Below are positions 1 through 47,416 of a DNA stretch of 47,416 nucleotides, piece by piece. The stretch is from a virus. Its lineage: Duplodnaviria > Caudoviricetes. The stretch spans positions 1-47,416 of the IMG/VR virus record IMGVR_UViG_3300027533_000037; one strand, given 5' to 3'. The notes under the pieces are model-generated. The model saw only the letters and a program-made list of their open reading frames with translations. It was not told the origin of the DNA and did no database searches. The position numbers and the translations under genes were made by a program. Position 1 is the stretch's first letter, and each line of letters opens with the position of its first letter.

Positions 1-165
1 AGGGTGTGGCGCGGCGACCGGGTGGGATTATGAAGACAGAAGAAGAGTCGTCGTTCAGAGATCAGGCATCAATCGGACTCGCCCAGCTATGAAAGTTGGT
101 TGGAGCGCGACTTTTCTCCTTATGGTTACCCTGCCAGAATACATCTCGCCGCAAGTATTAAATGA
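1..165. repeat. Terminal direct repeat / circular assembly overlap (copy 1)
   Basis: Matches 47252-47416 except at positions 127, 130 and 131. Confidence 0.95.
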
Positions 166-262
166 GGTTATTGCCACCGCTGGTAGAATAGGTGGTCTCG
201 GCGACTTCCGGCCGACTTACGGAAGGTTCGCCGTTGTCTCCTATCGGGTGTGCGAGGGATAG
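2..262 (+). CDS. C-terminal part of Cas7/RAMP-like (Vipr-like) protein; continues from 46809 across the junction
   Basis: Frame 2 reads GCGAATGWDYEDRRRVVVQRSGINRTRPAMKVGWSATFLLMVTLPEYISPQVLNEVIATAGRIGGLGDFRPTYGRFAVVSYRVCEG, stop TAG 260-262. The C-terminal glycine-rich loop GGLGDFRPTYGRF is RAMP-like. Confidence 0.85.
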   Translation, partial: GCGAATGWDYEDRRRVVVQRSGINRTRPAMKVGWSATFLLMVTLPEYISPQVLNEVIATAGRIGGLGDFRPTYGRFAVVSYRVCEG

Positions 263-586
263 GTCCGGCAGGGAGCGGCTTGGGATGGCAGGGCTCGGTT
301 AGCTATGGCCGGGGGTGGCATGGTCCGGCATGGTACGGGGCAGCAATGCCCGGCATGGACGGGTGAGGTGTGGAGCGGCTGGCCGCGGCGCGGTCTGTCT
401 CGGTACGGCTCGGGGGGGCCTGGTGTGGTGCGGCAGGGTTAGGTCGGATTCGGCACGCCGTGGGGCGGCTCGGAATGGCTAGGTGTGGTCAGGCGGGCGT
501 CGGCATGGCGCGGCCTGCGGGGGTGCGGAGCGGCATGGCAGGCTCTGGGTAGGCATGGTGTGGCGCGGCTGGCCCTGGTATGGTGC
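262..586 (+). repeat. Array of 65 GGYNN-type pentamers in unbroken 5-nt register (putative guide RNA array)
   Basis: GGTCC GGCAG GGAGC GGCTT GGGAT GGCAG GGCTC GGTTA ... GGTAT GGTGC. By hand count 63/65 start with G, 54/65 with GG and 43/65 with GGY; the last two bases vary freely. Confidence 0.93.
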
Positions 587-1382: not shown

Positions 1383-3605
1383 ATGTCTGACCTGCCCGCG
1401 ATCGCGCTTCCGCCGGAACGCGAGACCGTCGATCGCGACCAGGATTTGCTGGGGCGGCAGCCGCGCGGCGGCGCCTCCCCGAAGTCGGGCATCCGCGGCC
1501 ATCTCGACGATCTGTTCGATGACATCAAACGCGGCTTCGACGACCAGGAAGACCGCTCCGACGACATCCAGGATTATTGGGACTGCTATAACTGCGAGGC
1601 GAACCAACACCGTTATTACAACGGTATCGCCAACATCTATTTCCCGATCATCCACGACGCCATCGAGGCGATCGTCACGAGGTATGTTAACCAATTGTTC
1701 CCGCAGGGCGGCCGCTATGTGCAGGCGATCAGCGCCGACGGCGACACCGAATCCGCGCTCGTCGCGATCCTCGACCACTATATCCGCCAGGGTAGCGTCA
1801 AGACCCAGGTCGCCGAACCCCTGGTCAGGAACGGCCAGGTCGAGGGGCAATACAGCCTCTACGTGGACTGGGCCGAGGTCGAGCGGCAGATTGTTTCACG
1901 TGAAACACACGGCCCCATTGACCCAGAAACCGGCCAGGAAATGCCGGGCGAGGAAATCGAGGACATCACCGAGGAGACCGTCATCGAGGGCTACCCGGTC
2001 CTTGAGGTGTTGCACGACCCCGATGTTCTGATATTGCCGCCGACGGCCGACACGGTGCAGGAGGCGCTGTCCTGCGGCGGCTCCGTCACGATCGTCCGCC
2101 GCTGGTCCAAGGACAAGATCCGGGCGATGGCGCGGGCCGGCAACATCCGCGAGGACGAGGCGGATAAGCTCGTCGCCGAGATGGGCCGGGTCGGCGAGGA
2201 GGAGCGCAACACCGAGCGCCACATCCTGGAACAGGTCGGCATCCGCGACGAGGGGCGGATGGCGCAGGTCTGGGAAGTCTGGGCGATGCTGCCGCTGGGC
2301 AAATCCGGGCGCTACGCCGAGGATGGCCGCAAACGCCTCTGCCGCATCTTCTTCGGCCCGAAGCGCTGCCAATTGGGCGCCAAGCGCAACCCCTACTGGA
2401 ACGACCGCTGCCCGCTGATTTCGCGCCCGGTCAAGAAGATGGCCGGCGCCGCCAAGGGGCCGAGCCCGATCAAGTACGTGGAATCGTTGCAATATGAAGC
2501 AAACGATGCGGTTAACGAAGGTGCCGACGCGGCGACACTCAGTGCGGCGCCCATCGTTGCCCGTGACCCCGAGAAGGTGGACGGTCCGCTTGTTTACAAC
2601 GTCGGGGCCGTCTGGGATGCGCCTCCCGGTTCGGTTGAGCTTCTCACATTTCCCGACCTTACCCCTCGCGCGGCAACTCGCGTCCAAATGGCCCTACAGG
2701 CGATATTCCAGAACCTGAATGTCAACCCGTCGATGCTGCCGTCTTCCTCCTCGCGCACGACGCAGCCGACCCAGGCGCAGATCGCCCAGGAGCAGGCGGT
2801 CGACCTGCTGACGACGGCGATGGGTGTCTCGACCCTGGAGGACGTGTTGACCGAGGCGGTCGCCTGGATCGTCGACCTCGACTACCAGTTCCGCGACCGC
2901 AATATCCTGATCCGGATGTTCGGCGAGGAGGGCCGTAAGGCCGAGATGCAGTCGGTCAGCCCCCTCCAGAACCGCAACGGCCTGACCTTTGTCTGGCGCG
3001 GCGGCGAGCAGGTACGGCAGAACGCGATGATGGCGCAGCAGGGCACGGCGCTCCTCAATGTGCTGCAGAATCCCGCATTGGAGCAGCGCCTCAAGGCCGA
3101 GGGCATCCAGTTGCGCCTCTCCAAGCTGGTCAGCCAGATGGTCGCCAACGCCTTTGGCCCGGAACTGGGCGAAGCCATCCTGTTCGACCAGCGCAACAGC
3201 CTCTCCTTTCCGCAGGACCGCGAGAACGAGATGCTGGTGGCCGGGTTCGAGGTGCCGGTGCACCCGCTCGACAATGACGAGGAGCACATCCCGGAGGTCA
3301 TGCGGGCGATCCAGGAAACGGGTGACCCGCACGGCACATTGCGGGTCCACCTCCAGGCCCACCTCGCCCAGCGCGCCGCCAAGGTGCAGGCCCAGATGAT
3401 GCAGCAGATGGCGATGCAGCAGCAGGGCCAACCGCCGCGCCCCGGCCTGCCAGGACCCGCCGGCCCAGGCCGCCCGCCCGGCGCACAACCTCCGGCCCCC
3501 GGCTCGCAGCCGGCCGGCCCGCAGCAGATGCGGGGGCCTCCAGGTATGGTGCATCCCGATATGATGGCTAGGGCCGGGGGAATCTCGATGCCCAGGAAGA
3601 TGTGA
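1383..3605 (+). CDS. Portal protein
   Basis: 740 aa between terminase and scaffold/capsid. Typical podoviral portal features (N-terminal YFPIIHDAIEA, RCPLISRP, Q/P-rich C-terminal tail, DNDEEHI motif). Confidence 0.85.
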   Translation: MSDLPAIALPPERETVDRDQDLLGRQPRGGASPKSGIRGHLDDLFDDIKRGFDDQEDRSDDIQDYWDCYNCEANQHRYYNGIANIYFPIIHDAIEAIVTRYVNQLFPQGGRYVQAISADGDTESALVAILDHYIRQGSVKTQVAEPLVRNGQVEGQYSLYVDWAEVERQIVSRETHGPIDPETGQEMPGEEIEDITEETVIEGYPVLEVLHDPDVLILPPTADTVQEALSCGGSVTIVRRWSKDKIRAMARAGNIREDEADKLVAEMGRVGEEERNTERHILEQVGIRDEGRMAQVWEVWAMLPLGKSGRYAEDGRKRLCRIFFGPKRCQLGAKRNPYWNDRCPLISRPVKKMAGAAKGPSPIKYVESLQYEANDAVNEGADAATLSAAPIVARDPEKVDGPLVYNVGAVWDAPPGSVELLTFPDLTPRAATRVQMALQAIFQNLNVNPSMLPSSSSRTTQPTQAQIAQEQAVDLLTTAMGVSTLEDVLTEAVAWIVDLDYQFRDRNILIRMFGEEGRKAEMQSVSPLQNRNGLTFVWRGGEQVRQNAMMAQQGTALLNVLQNPALEQRLKAEGIQLRLSKLVSQMVANAFGPELGEAILFDQRNSLSFPQDRENEMLVAGFEVPVHPLDNDEEHIPEVMRAIQETGDPHGTLRVHLQAHLAQRAAKVQAQMMQQMAMQQQGQPPRPGLPGPAGPGRPPGAQPPAPGSQPAGPQQMRGPPGMVHPDMMARAGGISMPRKM

Positions 3606-4243
3606 TGTTGGAGTGGCGACCGATCCCCGGCTATGAGGGGTTATATGAGGTCTCGGCGGAGGGGGATGTCCGCTCTCTGCCGCGCCTGATCCCGTGCGCC
3701 AGCGGCGAATCCCGACGTTTCGCGGGACGGGGGCTCACGCCAGACCCCAACAAGTGGGGGTATTTACGTGTGACGCTACACCGAAGTGGGCGCCAAAAGC
3801 GATGCGGCGTGCACGAACTGGTGGCGCTGGCCTTTATTGGCCCAAAGCCAGTTGGCGCGTGGGTGCTCCATCGAGACGACGACAAGCGCAAAAATATCCC
3901 CGGTAATCTCTACTATGGAACCCGGGCCGAAAATGCCAAGGATGCGATAGCGAATGGCCGCCAGGTTCGCGGCAGCCGCGTATCGAACAGCAAACTTACC
4001 GAGGCCGATATTCCGTCGATCTTGGCGATGCGATCCCGCGGGGAAACCTACAAAGGGATCGGCATCGCTTTCGGCGTGGCGACATCAACCATATTCCAGA
4101 TTTGCGTGGGGAAATGGTGGAAGGAGGCTGCGCTGGCCATACACCCCGACCAACTATCGAGAGCTGGGGGCATCGGATTCCCGCGCAAGATGCGGCTTGA
4201 CAAAACCACATCTAGCGGTCTTACCCTGATCGTGCGCGCGTAA
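3602..4243 (+). CDS. NUMOD4-HNH homing endonuclease
   Basis: EWRPIPGYEGLYEVSAEGDVRS (NUMOD4), VHELVALAFIGPKP..VLHRDDDKRKNIPGNLYYGTRAENAKD (HNH), C-terminal HTH. Confidence 0.9.
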   Translation: MMLEWRPIPGYEGLYEVSAEGDVRSLPRLIPCASGESRRFAGRGLTPDPNKWGYLRVTLHRSGRQKRCGVHELVALAFIGPKPVGAWVLHRDDDKRKNIPGNLYYGTRAENAKDAIANGRQVRGSRVSNSKLTEADIPSILAMRSRGETYKGIGIAFGVATSTIFQICVGKWWKEAALAIHPDQLSRAGGIGFPRKMRLDKTTSSGLTLIVRA

Positions 4244-7514: not shown

Positions 7515-7547
7515 ATAATGCCCCTCCTGTTTCGGAGGGGGCATTAT
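7515..7547 (+). promoter_or_regulatory. Hairpin sequestering the RBS and start codon of the HNH gene
   Basis: ATAATGCCCCTCC (7515-7527) pairs with GGAGGGGGCATTAT (7534-7547) with one bulge; TATAAT at 7514-7519. Confidence 0.65.
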
Positions 7548-8142
7548 GGAGTGGAGACTAGTGGTGGGGTATGAGGCGTTCTACGAAGTGAGCGATCAGG
7601 GCGATGTGAGGTCCTTGCCTCGTCGCGTTGGAGCCAAGGATGGTGGGACGCGCGTTCGGAAGCCTCATGTGTTGAGGCCGATCGTCTGGAAAAACCAGCA
7701 CTGGAGGGTGAGGCTCACTGACGCCTCGGGGGTCGCGAAGGAGAGAAAAGTTCACCACCTTGTGGCTGCGGCGTTTTTGGGGCCACGTCCGGCCGGTATG
7801 GGTGCGCTACACAAGGACGATGACAAGTCGCGGAATTGTCTGGCCAACCTTTACTACGGGACGCCGGCCCAAAATACGCGGGACAAGATGGCGAACGGCA
7901 AGCACAGATACGGCATCTCTCTTGGAGAGAAGCACGGGCAAAGCCGCCTAACCGAGAAGGATATTCCTGAAATTCTAAGGATGCGCGAGGGTGGAATGAC
8001 ATTCAGAGCGTTGGCCGCGGCTTTCGATATGTCGGAAATGGCGATACAGAGTGTCGTGCGCGGACGCAGTTGGGGGTGGCTCTCGGGGGTCAAGTTCGAG
8101 CCCAGGCGCGGTCGCTATGTGACGGTTAAGAGGAGCGCCTGA
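7546..8142 (+). CDS. NUMOD4-HNH homing endonuclease
   Basis: MEWRLVVGYEAFYEVSDQGDVRS; VHHLVAAAFLGPRP..ALHKDDDKSRNCLANLYYGTPAQNTRD; paralog of 3602-4243. Confidence 0.9.
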   Translation: MEWRLVVGYEAFYEVSDQGDVRSLPRRVGAKDGGTRVRKPHVLRPIVWKNQHWRVRLTDASGVAKERKVHHLVAAAFLGPRPAGMGALHKDDDKSRNCLANLYYGTPAQNTRDKMANGKHRYGISLGEKHGQSRLTEKDIPEILRMREGGMTFRALAAAFDMSEMAIQSVVRGRSWGWLSGVKFEPRRGRYVTVKRSA

Positions 8143-32283: not shown

Positions 32284-33191
32284 TCCGGTTTCTCCATTGA
32301 GATTGAGACACCCCTGCCGTCGCGCTTCAGGCGAACCAGCCCCAGTTGACAAAGCCCGACATCCTCTGGCACCAGGGCGGTCATCTCCCTGCGCACGATC
32401 GCGTGCTTCACCGCCGCGCCGTGCGTCTCGGCGAAATCGCGGGCCAGCCGCTGAAATTCCCCGGCCCAGTTCGGCCGCTCGGCCTCCGGCGTCACGTCCA
32501 GCAGGATCTCGCGGCGTTTCGGCTGCGGCTTTGGCGGGGCGACCGGAGCTGCCTCGTCCTGCGGCTCTTCGTCGGCCTCGACGTGCCGCCAGAATGCGCG
32601 TTCCTTGGCGATCAGCGCCGCCTGGTACAGCACGTCAACCTCTTGGTAGATAATCTCGTGCTTGCGGTTTCCGATCAGGCATGACAGCGCCCACCAGTCG
32701 CAGCCCATGACGGTCGCCTGATGTGTGCCGGCGGCGGTATAACGCAAAACCTCCTGTTCATAGGCTTGCCCCAAATGCTTGGCGTCGATGACGCAGCGAT
32801 GTCCCTGGGGAGTTGTTGTCATGCCGTCCAAATTGCATGCCATCCAGGGATAAGCCTCGCTGATCTGAAGCTCATCCTCGTACATATTTGCGTAGAACCC
32901 GGTCGCCACCGAGTCTGGGCCGTGCAGCGCGCTCCATATCTCGCGCATCAGCGGGTTGCCGCTGTAGTAGTTGATTTCTCGGCCCGTAGTTCTCTCGGCC
33001 CACGCCAAATTAAAAGGTTCCGTCATGCTGCCAAGCTGTACCGGCAGCACGCCAGACAGATTATCCCCCTCAGCAAGACCCTTCTTCTCGCGCCACACCG
33101 AGCGCCACTCGCCGGCCATTATTTTGGCCGCGTCGCCTGCTTGGACGTACCTGCGTCGCGCGGCGATCTGCTCCTTGCTTAGGCCGAGCAT
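32277..33191 (-). CDS. YqaJ / lambda-exonuclease-like recombination nuclease
   Basis: RRRYVQAGDAAKIM..VWREKKG..VQLGSMTEP..YPWMACNLDG..VIDAK; adjacent to ERF. Confidence 0.8.
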   Translation of the reverse strand: MLGLSKEQIAARRRYVQAGDAAKIMAGEWRSVWREKKGLAEGDNLSGVLPVQLGSMTEPFNLAWAERTTGREINYYSGNPLMREIWSALHGPDSVATGFYANMYEDELQISEAYPWMACNLDGMTTTPQGHRCVIDAKHLGQAYEQEVLRYTAAGTHQATVMGCDWWALSCLIGNRKHEIIYQEVDVLYQAALIAKERAFWRHVEADEEPQDEAAPVAPPKPQPKRREILLDVTPEAERPNWAGEFQRLARDFAETHGAAVKHAIVRREMTALVPEDVGLCQLGLVRLKRDGRGVSISMEKPEC

Positions 33192-33658
33192 CGCGCGAGC
33201 CTCCGCTTTTCGGAGATTTGGGCGTTCCTTTTTGTCCACTTTGCCTTTTGGCACTGGTAGCAGACTCGGTGCCCGTTAGCATCGATCCGAGAGCCGGCGT
33301 AGGGGTGTCCGTTTGGGCAAGAATCCTTGGCCAGCATCCTGGCGCGCAGAAGCTTCCCAGCGTCGCTGCGCCTGACATTATCGGCGTGCGTCACCGGCTC
33401 CAGGTGATCCGGGTTGACGCAACAGCGCATCCGACACAGGTGGTCAATCTCCAGACCATCGCCTATCGGCCCCCGAAAGAACAACCAAGCGGCGCGGTGG
33501 ACATAGATTTCGGTCCCGCCCCACTGGATACGGCCATAACCCTTCGGCGTGAGGTGCCCTAGCCAAATCCAGCAGCCGCTGTTCGGCTCGGGTTCGCACC
33601 CAGCCTCAAATCGCGGGAGAAACTCTTGCTGTCGCCCAGTTAGTCGGGGCTCGCTCAT
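33179..33658 (-). CDS. HNH endonuclease (HNH_3 type)
   Basis: GCWIWLG..GYGRI..VHRAAW..IDHLCRMRCCVNPDHLEPVTHADNVRR plus C-terminal CPNGH zinc motif. Confidence 0.9.
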   Translation of the reverse strand: MSEPRLTGRQQEFLPRFEAGCEPEPNSGCWIWLGHLTPKGYGRIQWGGTEIYVHRAAWLFFRGPIGDGLEIDHLCRMRCCVNPDHLEPVTHADNVRRSDAGKLLRARMLAKDSCPNGHPYAGSRIDANGHRVCYQCQKAKWTKRNAQISEKRRLARCSA

Positions 33659-35359: not shown

Positions 35360-36141
35360 GCCTTAAATTGCTCAGCTGGGCATTCGAGCAGGATCTCCCC
35401 TGCGCCGAAAAGATCGTGCTGCTGGCCCTGGCCGACATGGCCGACATGGACGGCAAGTGCTGGCCCTCGCAAACCCATCTAGCCAAGCGGTGCGGCATCG
35501 TCCGCGAGACGGTCAACCGGCAGATAAAAAAGCTGGTCAGCGCCGGAATGCTCCGGGTCGAACACAGGGCCGACAGGGATGGGCAACACTCAAATGTATA
35601 TTTTGTGCAGTGTGACGCAGGATCACATGTGACCCAAGATCACGTGACCAAAGATCACTCGGCACCTGACGGACGATCACTCGGGCACGTGACGGACGAT
35701 CACACAGAACCTTCACTTAGAACCTTCAAGGAATCTCCCCCTGTAGTCCCCCGCCGGGGGACGACGCTTACGGACTTCGAAAAATGGTGGGAAGGCTATC
35801 CGGCGAAGATCGGGAAGGGGGCGGCCGAGAGGGCTTGGGCAAGGGCCTGTAAGCAAGCCAGTGCCGGCGACATGATTGCGGGAGTTTCCCGCTATATCGC
35901 CAACAAGCCCGAAGACCGGGACTGGTGCCATCCGGCAACATGGCTCAATCAGAAGCGCTGGCTCGATGATTTTGGCGACAGCGAGCAGCGGCGCATCAAG
36001 CCGACCTCACCACCACCAAGACTGGAGAACGGCAATGCCGCCATCGGACGTGACAATGATCGGGTTTCCCAGCAAGGCGCATTACAGCGGCATTCGCAAA
36101 AGCCTGCGGAACCGGAGTTATTCCGGTCTGACCGATACTGA
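35356..36141 (+). CDS. Replication initiator (lambda-O-like, N-terminal wHTH)
   Basis: EKIVLLALADMAD.DGKCWPSQTHLAKRCGI.RETV; FEKWWEGYPAKIGK..HPATWLNQKRWLD; internal iterons. Confidence 0.85.
   Translation: MSLKLLSWAFEQDLPCAEKIVLLALADMADMDGKCWPSQTHLAKRCGIVRETVNRQIKKLVSAGMLRVEHRADRDGQHSNVYFVQCDAGSHVTQDHVTKDHSAPDGRSLGHVTDDHTEPSLRTFKESPPVVPRRGTTLTDFEKWWEGYPAKIGKGAAERAWARACKQASAGDMIAGVSRYIANKPEDRDWCHPATWLNQKRWLDDFGDSEQRRIKPTSPPPRLENGNAAIGRDNDRVSQQGALQRHSQKPAEPELFRSDRY
35612..35703. repeat. Five iterons GTGAC-N4-GATCAC (putative replication origin)
   Basis: Copies at 35612, 35629, 35644, 35666 (CTGAC) and 35689, inside the initiator gene. Confidence 0.8.
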
Positions 36142-44490: not shown

Positions 44491-46583
44491 GCGCGGCCCC
44501 CGACCTCGGCGCGGTCAAGGCCGAAATCCTCCAGATCATCTCCGCCGACAAGTGGAAGAGTCACCAGATTCTCTTCCGCCACCGCCACCAGTACAGCGGC
44601 GTCCCCACCGTGCCGGCCGAGTTCCACGAGGCGCTGGTTTCCGACTTTTGGAGTAGCGACCCCTATTCGATCATCCTCGCCTTCCGCGGCAGCGCCAAAT
44701 CGACGCTGGGCGAGGAGGACATCGTGCTGGCGGCGTGCCTGATGGCCTGGCGCAACATCGTCGTGATCTCCTCGAACGAGACCCGCGCGGCCGAGCGGCT
44801 GGCGGCGGTCGCCTACGAACTGACCACCAACCCCTTTATCGTCGACCTGTTCGGCGATTTGAAGGGCGACGCCTGGACCCAAACCAAGATCGTCACGACT
44901 ACGGGCGTCTGCGTGCAGGCGATCGGCCGCGACCAGGACATCCGGGGCATCAAGCACCTCGACCACCGGCCCGATTTCATCTTCGTCGATGACGTGGAGA
45001 GCCCGGAATCGGTGCAGACCCCGGACCAGCGCCGGAAGACGCTGAGATGGTTCCTCTCCGAATTGCTGCCGGCCTGCGCCCCGGAGCGCCGGGTCCGCAT
45101 CCGCGCGACGCCGATGGACGCCGAATCCCTGCCGATCAAGTTGCAGAACGAGTGGGGCTGGCCGACCAAGACGTTCCCGGTCGAGTACCTGGACGAGGAC
45201 GGTAAGCGCAAGGCGTCATGGCCCGAGGTGTGGCCATTGCCGAAGATCGACCGCGAGCGCCAGGGCTACGAGCGGGTCGGGGAATTGGCGGTCTGGGAGC
45301 GCGAGATGCTGTGCCGCGCCTTTTCCGAGAGCGACCGGATTTTCACCCGCGAGATGATAAAGGTGGCGCCCCGGGAGAAGACCTGGCAGGCCTGCTACGC
45401 GATGATCGACCCGGCCCGCTCCACGGGGCCGCAATCCGCCACCACCGGCTGGGCCGTGTGGTCCTGGATCAACAACCGCCTCGTGGTGTGGGCCGCCGAT
45501 GCGAGCTTCCTTCTCCCCGACGAAATCGTTGCCCTTGCCTTCGACATCCACGAACGGTTCGATCCGGTGTGGGTTGGCGTGGAGCTTGACGGCCTTGAAC
45601 AATTTCTATTGCAGCCGATGCGGCACGAAATGGCTCGAAGGGGGACTTATCTGCCCCTTAGAGGCGTCCGCGCTCCCCGCGGAAAGCTCGACTTCATCCG
45701 AGGGCTCCAGCCGTTCTTCTCGGCCCGCGAGGTCGAGTTCGCGCAAGCCCTACCAGTTCTCGCCGAACAGCTTCTCAACTTCCCGACGGGCAAGATAGAC
45801 GCGCCGAACGCGCTGGCCTACGCGCTGACAATGCGGCCGGGGCTGCCGGTCTACGACGGCTTCGGCGCCGAGCACATCGTCCCCGACCTCGCGCACGATC
45901 CGACCCGGCCCTTGTTCCTCATTGCCAACGCTACCGGCGCGATGACCGCGGCGGCGCTGGTGCAGCATTTCGACGGCCGGCTCCTCTTGTTGGCCGACTG
46001 GGTGCGCGAGGGCAATCCGGGCGAATTGGCGGGGCCTATATATAATGAGGCGGTGCTGTCGGCCGACGCGCCGCGCGACGCGCTGTTGCGCTCCCGGCCG
46101 CGCTCGTGGGACGCGATGCTGAAGGCGCCGGTGCCCGACCGCCTGACGAGCCGCAACCAGCCGCCCATCTGGATCGTGCCGCCGCACCACGAGGACAAGT
46201 ACACCAATGTCGGGCTGCTTCAGTCGATCCGGGCTATTCCGGCTGATCTGCGCCTCGGTGGCGCGGAGGCGGCCGGACAGGTTCATCTGCAAGATATGCT
46301 GGGCCGGATCTCCCGAGGCATGCCCGCTGTCGCGGCTTCCCCCCGAGCCCGATGGCTATGTCGTGCGTGCGCGGGAGGTTATTCTCGGGCCCTGGTGCGA
46401 GGCCGGCTCCAGGACGAACCGGAGCAGGGGCCGTACTCTCTCCTGATGGCGGCGGTCGAGAGCTTCCTGGGCCTCCAGCGCAAATCGTTTGCCTCGGACG
46501 CCGAAAGCGAGGATACGGATCAACCGTGGGGCGAGGATCGGTTCGGAAATAGATTCCGAACAGCAATGCCAGCTAGACGGTAA
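44487..46583 (+). CDS. terL: Terminase large subunit
   Basis: Walker A AFRGSAKST, Walker B FIFVDDVE, ATP coupling motif, nuclease MIDPA...KIDAPNALAYAL. Confidence 0.9.
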   Translation: MSAAPDLGAVKAEILQIISADKWKSHQILFRHRHQYSGVPTVPAEFHEALVSDFWSSDPYSIILAFRGSAKSTLGEEDIVLAACLMAWRNIVVISSNETRAAERLAAVAYELTTNPFIVDLFGDLKGDAWTQTKIVTTTGVCVQAIGRDQDIRGIKHLDHRPDFIFVDDVESPESVQTPDQRRKTLRWFLSELLPACAPERRVRIRATPMDAESLPIKLQNEWGWPTKTFPVEYLDEDGKRKASWPEVWPLPKIDRERQGYERVGELAVWEREMLCRAFSESDRIFTREMIKVAPREKTWQACYAMIDPARSTGPQSATTGWAVWSWINNRLVVWAADASFLLPDEIVALAFDIHERFDPVWVGVELDGLEQFLLQPMRHEMARRGTYLPLRGVRAPRGKLDFIRGLQPFFSAREVEFAQALPVLAEQLLNFPTGKIDAPNALAYALTMRPGLPVYDGFGAEHIVPDLAHDPTRPLFLIANATGAMTAAALVQHFDGRLLLLADWVREGNPGELAGPIYNEAVLSADAPRDALLRSRPRSWDAMLKAPVPDRLTSRNQPPIWIVPPHHEDKYTNVGLLQSIRAIPADLRLGGAEAAGQVHLQDMLGRISRGMPAVAASPRARWLCRACAGGYSRALVRGRLQDEPEQGPYSLLMAAVESFLGLQRKSFASDAESEDTDQPWGEDRFGNRFRTAMPARR

Positions 46584-46602
46584 TGACCGGGTGCGCTATT
46601 AT
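46574..46602 (+). promoter_or_regulatory. Sigma70-like promoter for the pentamer/Cas7-like module
   Basis: TAGACG (46574-46579)-N17-TATTAT (46597-46602); predicted start falls at the first pentamers. Confidence 0.55.
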
Positions 46603-46611
46603 GATGGCTGG

Positions 46612-46686
46612 GCCATGGCGCGCTGTGGTTTGGCTAGGGCGGCTTTGGTCCGCTTAGGCCTGGATCGGTTCGGCTAGGTAAGGTTT
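46612..46686 (+). repeat. Upstream tract of 15 GGYNN-type pentamers
   Basis: GCCAT GGCGC GCTGT GGTTT GGCTA GGGCG GCTTT GGTCC GCTTA GGCCT GGATC GGTTC GGCTA GGTAA GGTTT. Confidence 0.85.
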
Positions 46687-46808: not shown

Positions 46809-47416
46809 ATGGCGAGAAGTAAGGCTACTGCAGAAGTCGTCAGAATTGGCGGCGATGTTCCAACTAATGGATCTGACGAGGCTATTGCCTTTTTGGAACC
46901 GTTCACGGCTGAGGTCAGAATTGAGGGTTCGGCCGATATCCTGTTCCACCGCTGGAACCCGGAGGCGGTGGACGAAAAGGCGAAAGCGGCCAAGGGGAGC
47001 GCTGCAAAAAAGAGCGATAATATCGAAAGCTATGTTTATCGGAACGACGCGGGAGAGATTTGTTTGCCTGGAGAATATCTGCGCGGGGCTATAGTCGGGG
47101 CGGCGAAATTTCGCCAAGATCCGCGCTCTCCAAGAAAATCTGCGATGGACCTGTTCAAGGCTGGGGTGGTGTCATTGACCCCTTTGGCTCCGATGTATTC
47201 TGCGGCAAGCCGGGGCTCGGCAAGCGGCGGCAAGGCAAGCCACGGTGAGGCAGGGTGTGGCGCGGCGACCGGGTGGGATTATGAAGACAGAAGAAGAGTC
47301 GTCGTTCAGAGATCAGGCATCAATCGGACTCGCCCAGCTATGAAAGTTGGTTGGAGCGCGACTTTTCTCCTTATGGTCACGTTGCCAGAATACATCTCGC
47401 CGCAAGTATTAAATGA
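46809..47416 (+). CDS. N-terminal part of Cas7/RAMP-like (Vipr-like) protein, 234 aa in total across the junction
   Basis: GGGGAG RBS, ATG 46809, open to the window end: MARSKATAEVV..AEVRIEGSADILFHRW..ICLPGEYLRGAIVGAAKF..WDYEDRRRVVVQRSGINRTRP.. Lower GC than flanking genes. Confidence 0.85.
   Translation, partial: MARSKATAEVVRIGGDVPTNGSDEAIAFLEPFTAEVRIEGSADILFHRWNPEAVDEKAKAAKGSAAKKSDNIESYVYRNDAGEICLPGEYLRGAIVGAAKFRQDPRSPRKSAMDLFKAGVVSLTPLAPMYSAASRGSASGGKASHGEAGCGAATGWDYEDRRRVVVQRSGINRTRPAMKVGWSATFLLMVTLPEYISPQVLN
47204..47268 (+). repeat. 13 GGYNN-type pentamers inside the Cas7-like reading frame
   Basis: GGCAA GCCGG GGCTC GGCAA GCGGC GGCAA GGCAA GCCAC GGTGA GGCAG GGTGT GGCGC GGCGA (10/13 GGY). 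Confidence 0.8.
47252..47416. repeat. Terminal direct repeat / circular assembly overlap (copy 2)
   Basis: Matches 1-165 with 3 mismatches. Confidence 0.95.

Follow-up and report, generated by a model that had tools for sequence, protein, structure and literature searches.

VIPR systems consist of the CRISPR-like, RNA-guided protein Vipr and a guide, the vrRNA, and are described from phage SUSP1 and from a Pseudomonas fulva prophage (bioRxiv 10.64898/2026.04.26.720920, 10.64898/2026.04.26.720927). In the accessible parts of these accounts, guides pair through NN dinucleotides while every third target base is skipped (10.64898/2026.04.26.720920), and Vipr reportedly silences its targets and does not act as a nuclease. 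The phage locus considered here raises the question of what a guide-type pentamer tract does inside the reading frame of vipr itself.

The window, that is the whole stretch of 47,416 nt analysed here, is a circular phage contig of ~47 kb with a terminal overlap of 165 nt. Three synonymous differences separate its two copies (47378-47382 vs. 127-131). Run X1, which probably derives from DNA, has the window-start form; the two contig pieces from this run leave the pentamer tract in vipr unbridged. The vipr gene (Table 1) sits between terminase and head genes, in the company of genes for a DNA methylase, the major head protein, RecE-like and Erf recombination proteins and three HNH endonucleases. 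No cas family was found by Pfam among the 35 ORFs scanned, and no long-period array by TRF; as in VIPR systems, the locus is minimal and phage-encoded, with no adjoining CRISPR array or cas operon, and is flanked by GGY/NN tracts on both sides of vipr. The gene that follows (770-1357) belongs to no Pfam or PHROG family, and no vap gene was identified. Relatives differ in the downstream array by whole blocks of units, and locus L004 has exchanged the upstream tract for a different one while retaining the first hairpin with changes. In L081, the downstream array shows +1 register shifts between tracts, resembling the staggered arrays that are published along with further vrRNA architectures. A search for targets of the two intergenic tracts, covering the window and fetched loci totalling 0.88 Mb, gave a best match of 8 of 11 units, which was taken as chance. 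Elsewhere in the contig, the free-standing HNH endonuclease genes (3605-4243, 7546-8142 and 33179-33658, two with NUMOD4) are a possible source of local mosaicism, and tandem repeats of 15 and 23 nt within the replication initiation gene (35611-35703) are iteron-like.

Table 1. Features of the vipr region, in window coordinates
Feature	Position	Strand	Remarks
Sigma-70-like site TAGACG-N17-TATTAT	46574..46602	+	before upstream tract; 1 found vs. 0.4 expected in shuffles
Upstream intergenic GGY/NN tract	46617..46686	+	14 units; ends GGTAA GGTTT, then two hairpins
vipr (RAMP/Cas7-like)	46809..47416	+	runs past window end, through terminal repeat, to stop at 260-262
346-nt block (CDS nt 145-490)	46953..47298	+	altered site plus guide-type tract; near-identical across alleles with divergent flanks
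Own copy of targeted site	46992..47030	+	KGSAAKKSDNIES; matches 6/13 units
TTGACC-N15-TATTCT	47175..47201	+	present; promoter role unsupported
13-unit GGY/NN vrRNA-type tract	47204..47268	+	in frame in vipr; units 1-9 decode, 10-13 match poorly
vipr 3' end	1..262	+	1-165 duplicates 47252-47416 save for 3 mismatches; overlap from circular assembly
Downstream GGY/NN array	262..586	+	65 units, one register; begins on last base of vipr stop codon

The 234-residue Vipr protein, encoded identically at locus L008, was modelled with AlphaFold2 at a mean pLDDT of 84. Foldseek matched the model best to type III Csm and type VII RAMP chains (E 5.6e-6), and the predicted RAMP fold includes the thumb and G-loop expected of a VIPR effector. 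Residues G209, G213, D216 and R218, together with R173 and R175 of the thumb, are invariant. The protein matches phrog_4652, of unknown function (E 1.4e-14). A tblastn search of 50,697 phage records returned phage DSL-LC04 as the sole match and did not reach the Vipr of SUSP1; DSL-LC04 is a cultured phage and a possible bench host, encoding a 52%-identical homologue under a helix-turn-helix annotation (OR003939.1, 22438-23046). In another homologue, P0266, the frame apparently breaks in the thumb into a translated GGY/NN-like tract, a possible disruptive guide insertion.

The first-pass annotation had described a pentamer tract lying in frame within the effector gene, and this tract is real. 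Its 65 bases form 13 in-register pentamers, ten of which start with GGY and three (units 2, 5 and 8) with GC, within the 9-16 GGY/NN units of vrRNAs. Apart from the three pentamer tracts, no other 13-unit window on either strand has more than six GGY starts, and 139 insert-less vipr cores reach at most 5/13; the binomial expectation of at least 10/13 is 1.5e-5 per window-sized sequence, and a run score above 5 was obtained in 0/40 order-3 Markov simulations, compared with 7 for the tract. The NN series reads AA GG TC AA GC AA AA AC GA AG GT GC GA. In the frame of the ORF that starts at 46809, the tract translates as AASRGSASGGKASHGEAGCGAA, between ...LAPMYS and TGWDY... At each of the non-GGY units (47209, 47224, 47239), a canonical GG would force an AGG arginine codon, and an AGC serine codon is found instead; this observation was made post hoc, and AGG accounts for 1/109 arginine codons in the terminase and methylase genes combined. 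P0002 and P0012 have an arginine at one of these places. GC-type scaffold units also make up ~8% of intergenic units. A terminal GGYTT unit, which closes 38/197 intergenic tracts (vs. 6.4% inside) and also the inserts of L112 and L169 discussed below, is missing from the window tract, and no stable hairpin follows it (z +1.17, vs. -2.88 for the upstream tract), so that the structured tail of type II is not seen. The TTGACC-N15-TATTCT sequence noticed earlier just upstream is indeed present, but is unsupported as an internal promoter: its spacer is 15 nt, a sigma-70 scan does not call it, and TTGAC occurs at the same Leu-Thr codons in 11/93 insert-less genes.

The tract had also been thought to look like an insertion, and comparison with homologues bears this out. 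Of 120 homologues examined, five could not be parsed; the loop has 6 residues in 97 of the 115 measured and 28 in the window, a net gain of 22 residues (66 nt). In the model, the insert lies between the strand at 126-130 and a hairpin starting at 158, with pLDDT below 50 at 138-149. The core of the gene shows dN/dS of 0.02-0.11 against four insert-bearing relatives (one comparison being near saturation), and Vipr is therefore under purifying selection with the insert present. Non-periodic loops of 11-15 residues occupy the same site in 11/138 distinct loop regions (loci L038, L060, L069, L073, L080, L100, L156, L159, L161, L165 and L181), and the Vipr loop is thus a general insertion-tolerant position. 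The apparent 26-residue loops of L061 and L098 were mis-anchored 6-residue loops and were dropped from the set; among representatives clustered at 50% identity, 47/150 could be anchored. No segment conserved at the protein level without 5-nt periodicity underlies the window insert, the non-periodic loops being unrelated and found in other clades.

The dinucleotides of the tract are readable. Taken as codon positions 1 and 2 with a 1-nt skip, units 1-9 spell K-G-S-K-A-K-K-T-D, the form in which a conserved Vipr motif most often occurs (KGSKAKKTD; 52 proteins). The exact nine-unit pattern has 22 matches in IMG/VR, 19 of which are vipr genes; three of the matches lie on contigs already in the fetched locus set. 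With the 13 units together, the best skip-1 match falls on the KGSKAKKTD-type motif, on the sense strand and in frame, in 79/80 related loci, the exception (L046) lacking that region. Over 67 non-clade vipr genes, the mean best match is 7.12/9, vs. 4.30 for shuffled unit order (0/1000), and skips of other lengths score 3.9-4.3. Units 1-9 match 18/18 bases at 19/134 insert-less sites; the full tract matches at best 10/13 units and 21/26 bases (81%), a value reached at 11/134 insert-less sites. The NN series thus aligns with DNA in the manner of a vrRNA, with the wobble base skipped.

The corresponding site of the window's own gene reads KGSAAKKSD and matches 13 of the first 18 bases and 16/26 overall, i.e., 62%, below the published cut-off of 80%; this score is low yet unexceptional, as 24/134 insert-less sites are equally low. 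Among proteins with a KGSK-type insert, motif positions 4 and 8 are changed in 5/5 (two lineages, not five events), vs. 19/184 overall. The use of Ser AGY at motif position 3 was considered as an escape signal and rejected, since it occurs at 52/134 sites, much like two other serines (47 and 48 of 134). The tract dinucleotides match the sense strand of insert-less vipr alleles, and the own allele less well. The earlier proposal that the DNA may be dual-coding is upheld in that the gene is intact and constrained while the same bases carry a decodable GGY/NN code, and the suggested role as a guide inside the mRNA gains strong support at the level of sequence, with rival vipr alleles as its putative target.

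The window is not an isolated case. Loops of 16-38 residues occur in 18/115 measured close homologues, scattered over the tree, and the compatibility of the peptide with a GGY scaffold exceeds all 300 same-peptide shuffles in 15/17 long inserts. Two further insert lineages, L112 and L169, are represented by DNA. The 12-unit insert of L112 spells WDYLDTRRVM with its first ten units, i.e., the sequence directly after the loop. All ten match in 5/153 genes (null 0/200 shuffles), compared with 7/10 in its own gene, which departs from the pattern by a Tyr to Phe change and by synonymous first-position changes to Leu TTG and Arg AGG; such escape codons occur in 8/44 and 13/109 insert-less genes, respectively. 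The exact L112 pattern has five matches in IMG/VR, all of them insert-less vipr genes. The insert of L169 (8 units) gives a weaker signal, with a best match of 7/8 and a self-match of 6 (1/200). For inserts available as protein, decoding relied on the dinucleotides that the residues allow and was re-weighted after a first run (6/17 at 0/60). In this form, 9/17 inserts match a vipr motif with 0/150 order shuffles and at most 1/143 decoy ORFs doing as well, and 8/17 fall short of 0/150; a positive control of the window type failed (25/150), and the test is therefore insensitive. Among six held-out inserts, P0286 (which has the L112 loop) and P0287 reached 0/150 and P0338 1/150, whereas the three others did not; 4/6 thus fall short of 0/150. 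P0112 and P0285 carry inserts but were left unparsed and stand outside the decoded set, and P0003 was omitted as its loop equals that of P0001. Some of the decoded targets are situated upstream (KGSKAKKTD, WNPEAVDEK), others immediately ahead of the loop (AMDLFKAGIV), and others across it or right behind it, those of P0070 and P0338 spanning the insertion point itself.

A topology test on 44 rows chosen by hand, with the loop taken out, rejects the grouping of 16 insert proteins in a single clade (p-AU 1e-7), which implies repeated gain, transfer or loss of inserts; the tree requires 10 changes of insert state, five of them forced by strong branches. In a quick tree of 133 rows, L066 and L051 group with L112 and L169, which is only suggestive because both were added as top targets. 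Pattern scans of viral DNA for further insert-bearing vipr genes returned the known clade, insert-less vipr and one chance match, and a scan of genomes gave 14 matches, none of them vipr.

The guide-type tract and the altered site lie within a block that may have moved as a unit. Among four distinct alleles (L008, L001, L003 and L004), the block differs at 1-5/346 nt, compared with 24-51/160 at CDS bases 531-690, and the 5' part of L004 differs at 28/73. At third positions, 0-2/88 differ in the block vs. 23-29/54 in the 3' flank, with breakpoints near CDS 132, 491 and 528-531. The block is not immutable, since L005 differs at 33/76 of its third positions. Nowhere else in 5.6 kb are three 100-nt bins in a row uniform; 8/56 bins pass the same cut, however, so that general mosaicism is a plausible alternative. 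As far as can be read from sequence comparison, the pattern fits what co-conversion or a recombination-assisted sweep would leave, and the shared block and the non-monophyly of inserts together fit homing, with background mosaicism as the alternative. The idea that the tract is a trace of how tracts spread thus finds partial support, in the recurrent inserts and in this co-conversion-like block.

The interpretation that we favor, to which we assign a probability of roughly 0.65, is that the tract arose by in-frame insertion of a VIPR guide-type sequence into a tolerant vipr loop, that it would direct Vipr onto rival vipr alleles, and that guide and resistant site would spread together as a selfish block. 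Its starting points are the in-frame GGY/NN tract, which falls in a loop modelled with low confidence while purifying selection acts on the gene, and the better match of the dinucleotides, wobble skipped, to insert-less alleles than to the own allele. The guide would be released or protected from the vipr mRNA rather than made from a promoter of its own, as presumably is the downstream array, which is fused to the vipr stop codon. On the published mechanism, a Vipr filament on the tract RNA would then bind the DNA of the rival gene and silence it in a co-infected cell. Recombinants bearing both guide and resistant site would be favored, and the outcome would be marker exclusion or a co-conversion that resembles homing; the likely recombination machinery is the RecE-like protein together with Erf. 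Recoding would shield the own allele, a role that in some lineages would fall to the insertion, and the intragenic position would prevent recombination from parting the guide from the resistant site and the effector. A point against the selfish block is that local conversion could also stem from the three genes for HNH endonucleases.

Other explanations were weighed against this one. An ordinary low-complexity loop that is periodic by chance would draw on the readiness of the site to accept unrelated, non-periodic loops; it is refuted by the GGY excess (10/13 vs. a background maximum of 5-6) and by the nine-unit decoding, and the 15/17 inserts above all shuffles leave it next to no probability. 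The first-pass suggestion of a self-binding site for feedback control is plausible in itself but very improbable as the main function: excess Vipr would coat the GGY scaffold of the transcript that encodes it, blocking translation, the dinucleotides being irrelevant. Vipr does bind GGY repeats on RNA irrespective of NN, according to the accessible text of 10.64898/2026.04.26.720927, and the tract is on the mRNA sense strand. Autoregulation predicts arbitrary dinucleotides, yet these spell vipr motifs in several lineages, and 97/115 homologues live without the tract; it may occur as a side effect. Somewhat less remote, though still unlikely, is a by-product of guide acquisition, in which tracts are written beside copied DNA, the loop tolerates them as few other coding positions do and the host site mutates to escape, leaving a scar and not a weapon. 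Most decoded inserts do spell sequence found directly before, across or after the insertion point (L112/P0286, P0066, P0070, P0095, P0099, P0110, P0113, P0287 and P0338), and the tree demands many separate gains or losses. Against this, the window target lies ~210 nt upstream and that of P0005 slightly further, a scar by itself leaves the shared block unexplained, and the portions of the published VIPR account that we consulted describe no acquisition mechanism.

The most serious competitor, which we nevertheless consider improbable, is a decayed relic, i.e., a once-active anti-vipr guide that is now a tolerated peptide losing its code, possibly under selection away from self-targeting. Its evidence lies in the 3' part of the tract, where nine good 5' units give way to four drifted units that fit rival sites poorly. 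Read back from the protein, P0012 and P0002 continue D-N-I-E or D-N-I-G where the window differs; the own gene has N-I-E, and since the relatives' D-N-I-E reading is that of the own gene, the guide of this lineage appears to have moved away from self. The 12-unit pattern of the D-N-I-E form has one exact match in IMG/VR, a vipr gene. Among close relatives, the allele met most often reads AC at unit 3, a dinucleotide that suits none of the top-scoring sites; L105 carries a change that raises the self-match, and L005 and L006 lack six units (30 nt, with frame and register kept) and give no signal (139/200). A drifted 3' end would be costly because filament assembly on the vrRNA appears, in the part of 10.64898/2026.04.26.720927 available, to start there. 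The lack of a terminal GGYTT, a tail or a promoter call, and the AGC codons at all three would-be AGG places, point the same way. Conversely, nine contiguous units are still perfect for 19/134 rival sites, divergent alleles seem to have come to share the block recently, and GC-type units are no peculiarity of this tract. The window copy of the guide may be weakened or decaying.

Comparisons with published systems are drawn from the accessible portions of the respective sources. The locus resembles VIPR in its phage-encoded small RAMP, its flanking GGY/NN tracts, its guides of 9-16 units and the 1-nt skip at the wobble position. Some published vrRNAs, including P. fulva guides, target other VIPR systems; unlike them, the window guide would be aimed at alleles of the very gene that hosts it. 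The published vrRNAs lie between genes and, in type II, carry a tail, those of SUSP1 having a structured one (10.64898/2026.04.26.720927), whereas the window tract lies inside the vipr frame, in a translated loop, with no detectable tail. The solo vrRNAs of VIPR-null phages of the SUSP1 family target vipr (bioRxiv 10.64898/2026.10.15.759431) and are similar in that their guides align in wobble register with rival vipr coding sequences; a lower self-match is also reported there for vrRNA-targeting guides. These phages have deleted vipr, and self-targeting of vipr is absent for that reason, whereas the phage of the window keeps vipr, with the guide inside and the target altered. The VIPR preprints, in the parts consulted, contain no guide inside the vipr reading frame, although bioRxiv supplements may list such cases, and those parts of the VIPR-related preprints do not mention homing; 10.64898/2026.10.21.760802 covers intergenic DNA. 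As far as these sources go, what is new here is a guide within the reading frame of its own effector, vipr-targeting guides being already known from VIPR-null phages.

The second point of comparison is with homing introns, inteins and the free-standing homing endonucleases of T4-like phages, with their intronless homing, marker exclusion and co-conversion (PMC2988022, consulted in part). Shared features are a linked resistant allele, the targeting of a conserved site and signs of flanking co-conversion, and some loop inserts span, and hence destroy, their own target. There are also differences: there is no endonuclease and apparently no splicing, the insert stays in the mature protein, and 65 nt of dual-coding RNA, read by Vipr, would supply the specificity. 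As an in-frame tract of 65 nt with no separate ORF, it neither encodes its own endonuclease nor appears to be spliced out; it may work like a homing element though not a member of that class. We infer biased inheritance of the window block. A more far-reaching reading, which we put forward only tentatively and regard as rather doubtful, would make the tract a nuclease-free RNA-guided homing element of ~65 nt, sitting in frame in a tolerated loop of the effector gene that it exploits, targeting insert-less alleles, protecting itself by recoding or target splitting, and spreading by gene conversion with guide swapping across an entire Vipr clade.

Whatever the fate of the window copy, matched natural sets, each combining a guide with a sensitive and a resistant allele, would make the mismatch tolerance of VIPR measurable, including synonymous first-position escape (at Ser, Leu and Arg) from a code that by design disregards wobble changes. 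A Vipr loop that accepts 10-30 extra residues would be useful for fusions, and surveys restricted to intergenic DNA would miss intragenic guides. If the favored reading is correct, a guide RNA and the protein that reads it are encoded by the same bases, and an RNA-guided system turned on the alleles of its own gene would constitute a minimal gene drive. The question of how vrRNAs are acquired would become testable, and on the more far-reaching reading the inserts that spell adjacent sequence would be the first visible trace of VIPR guide acquisition.
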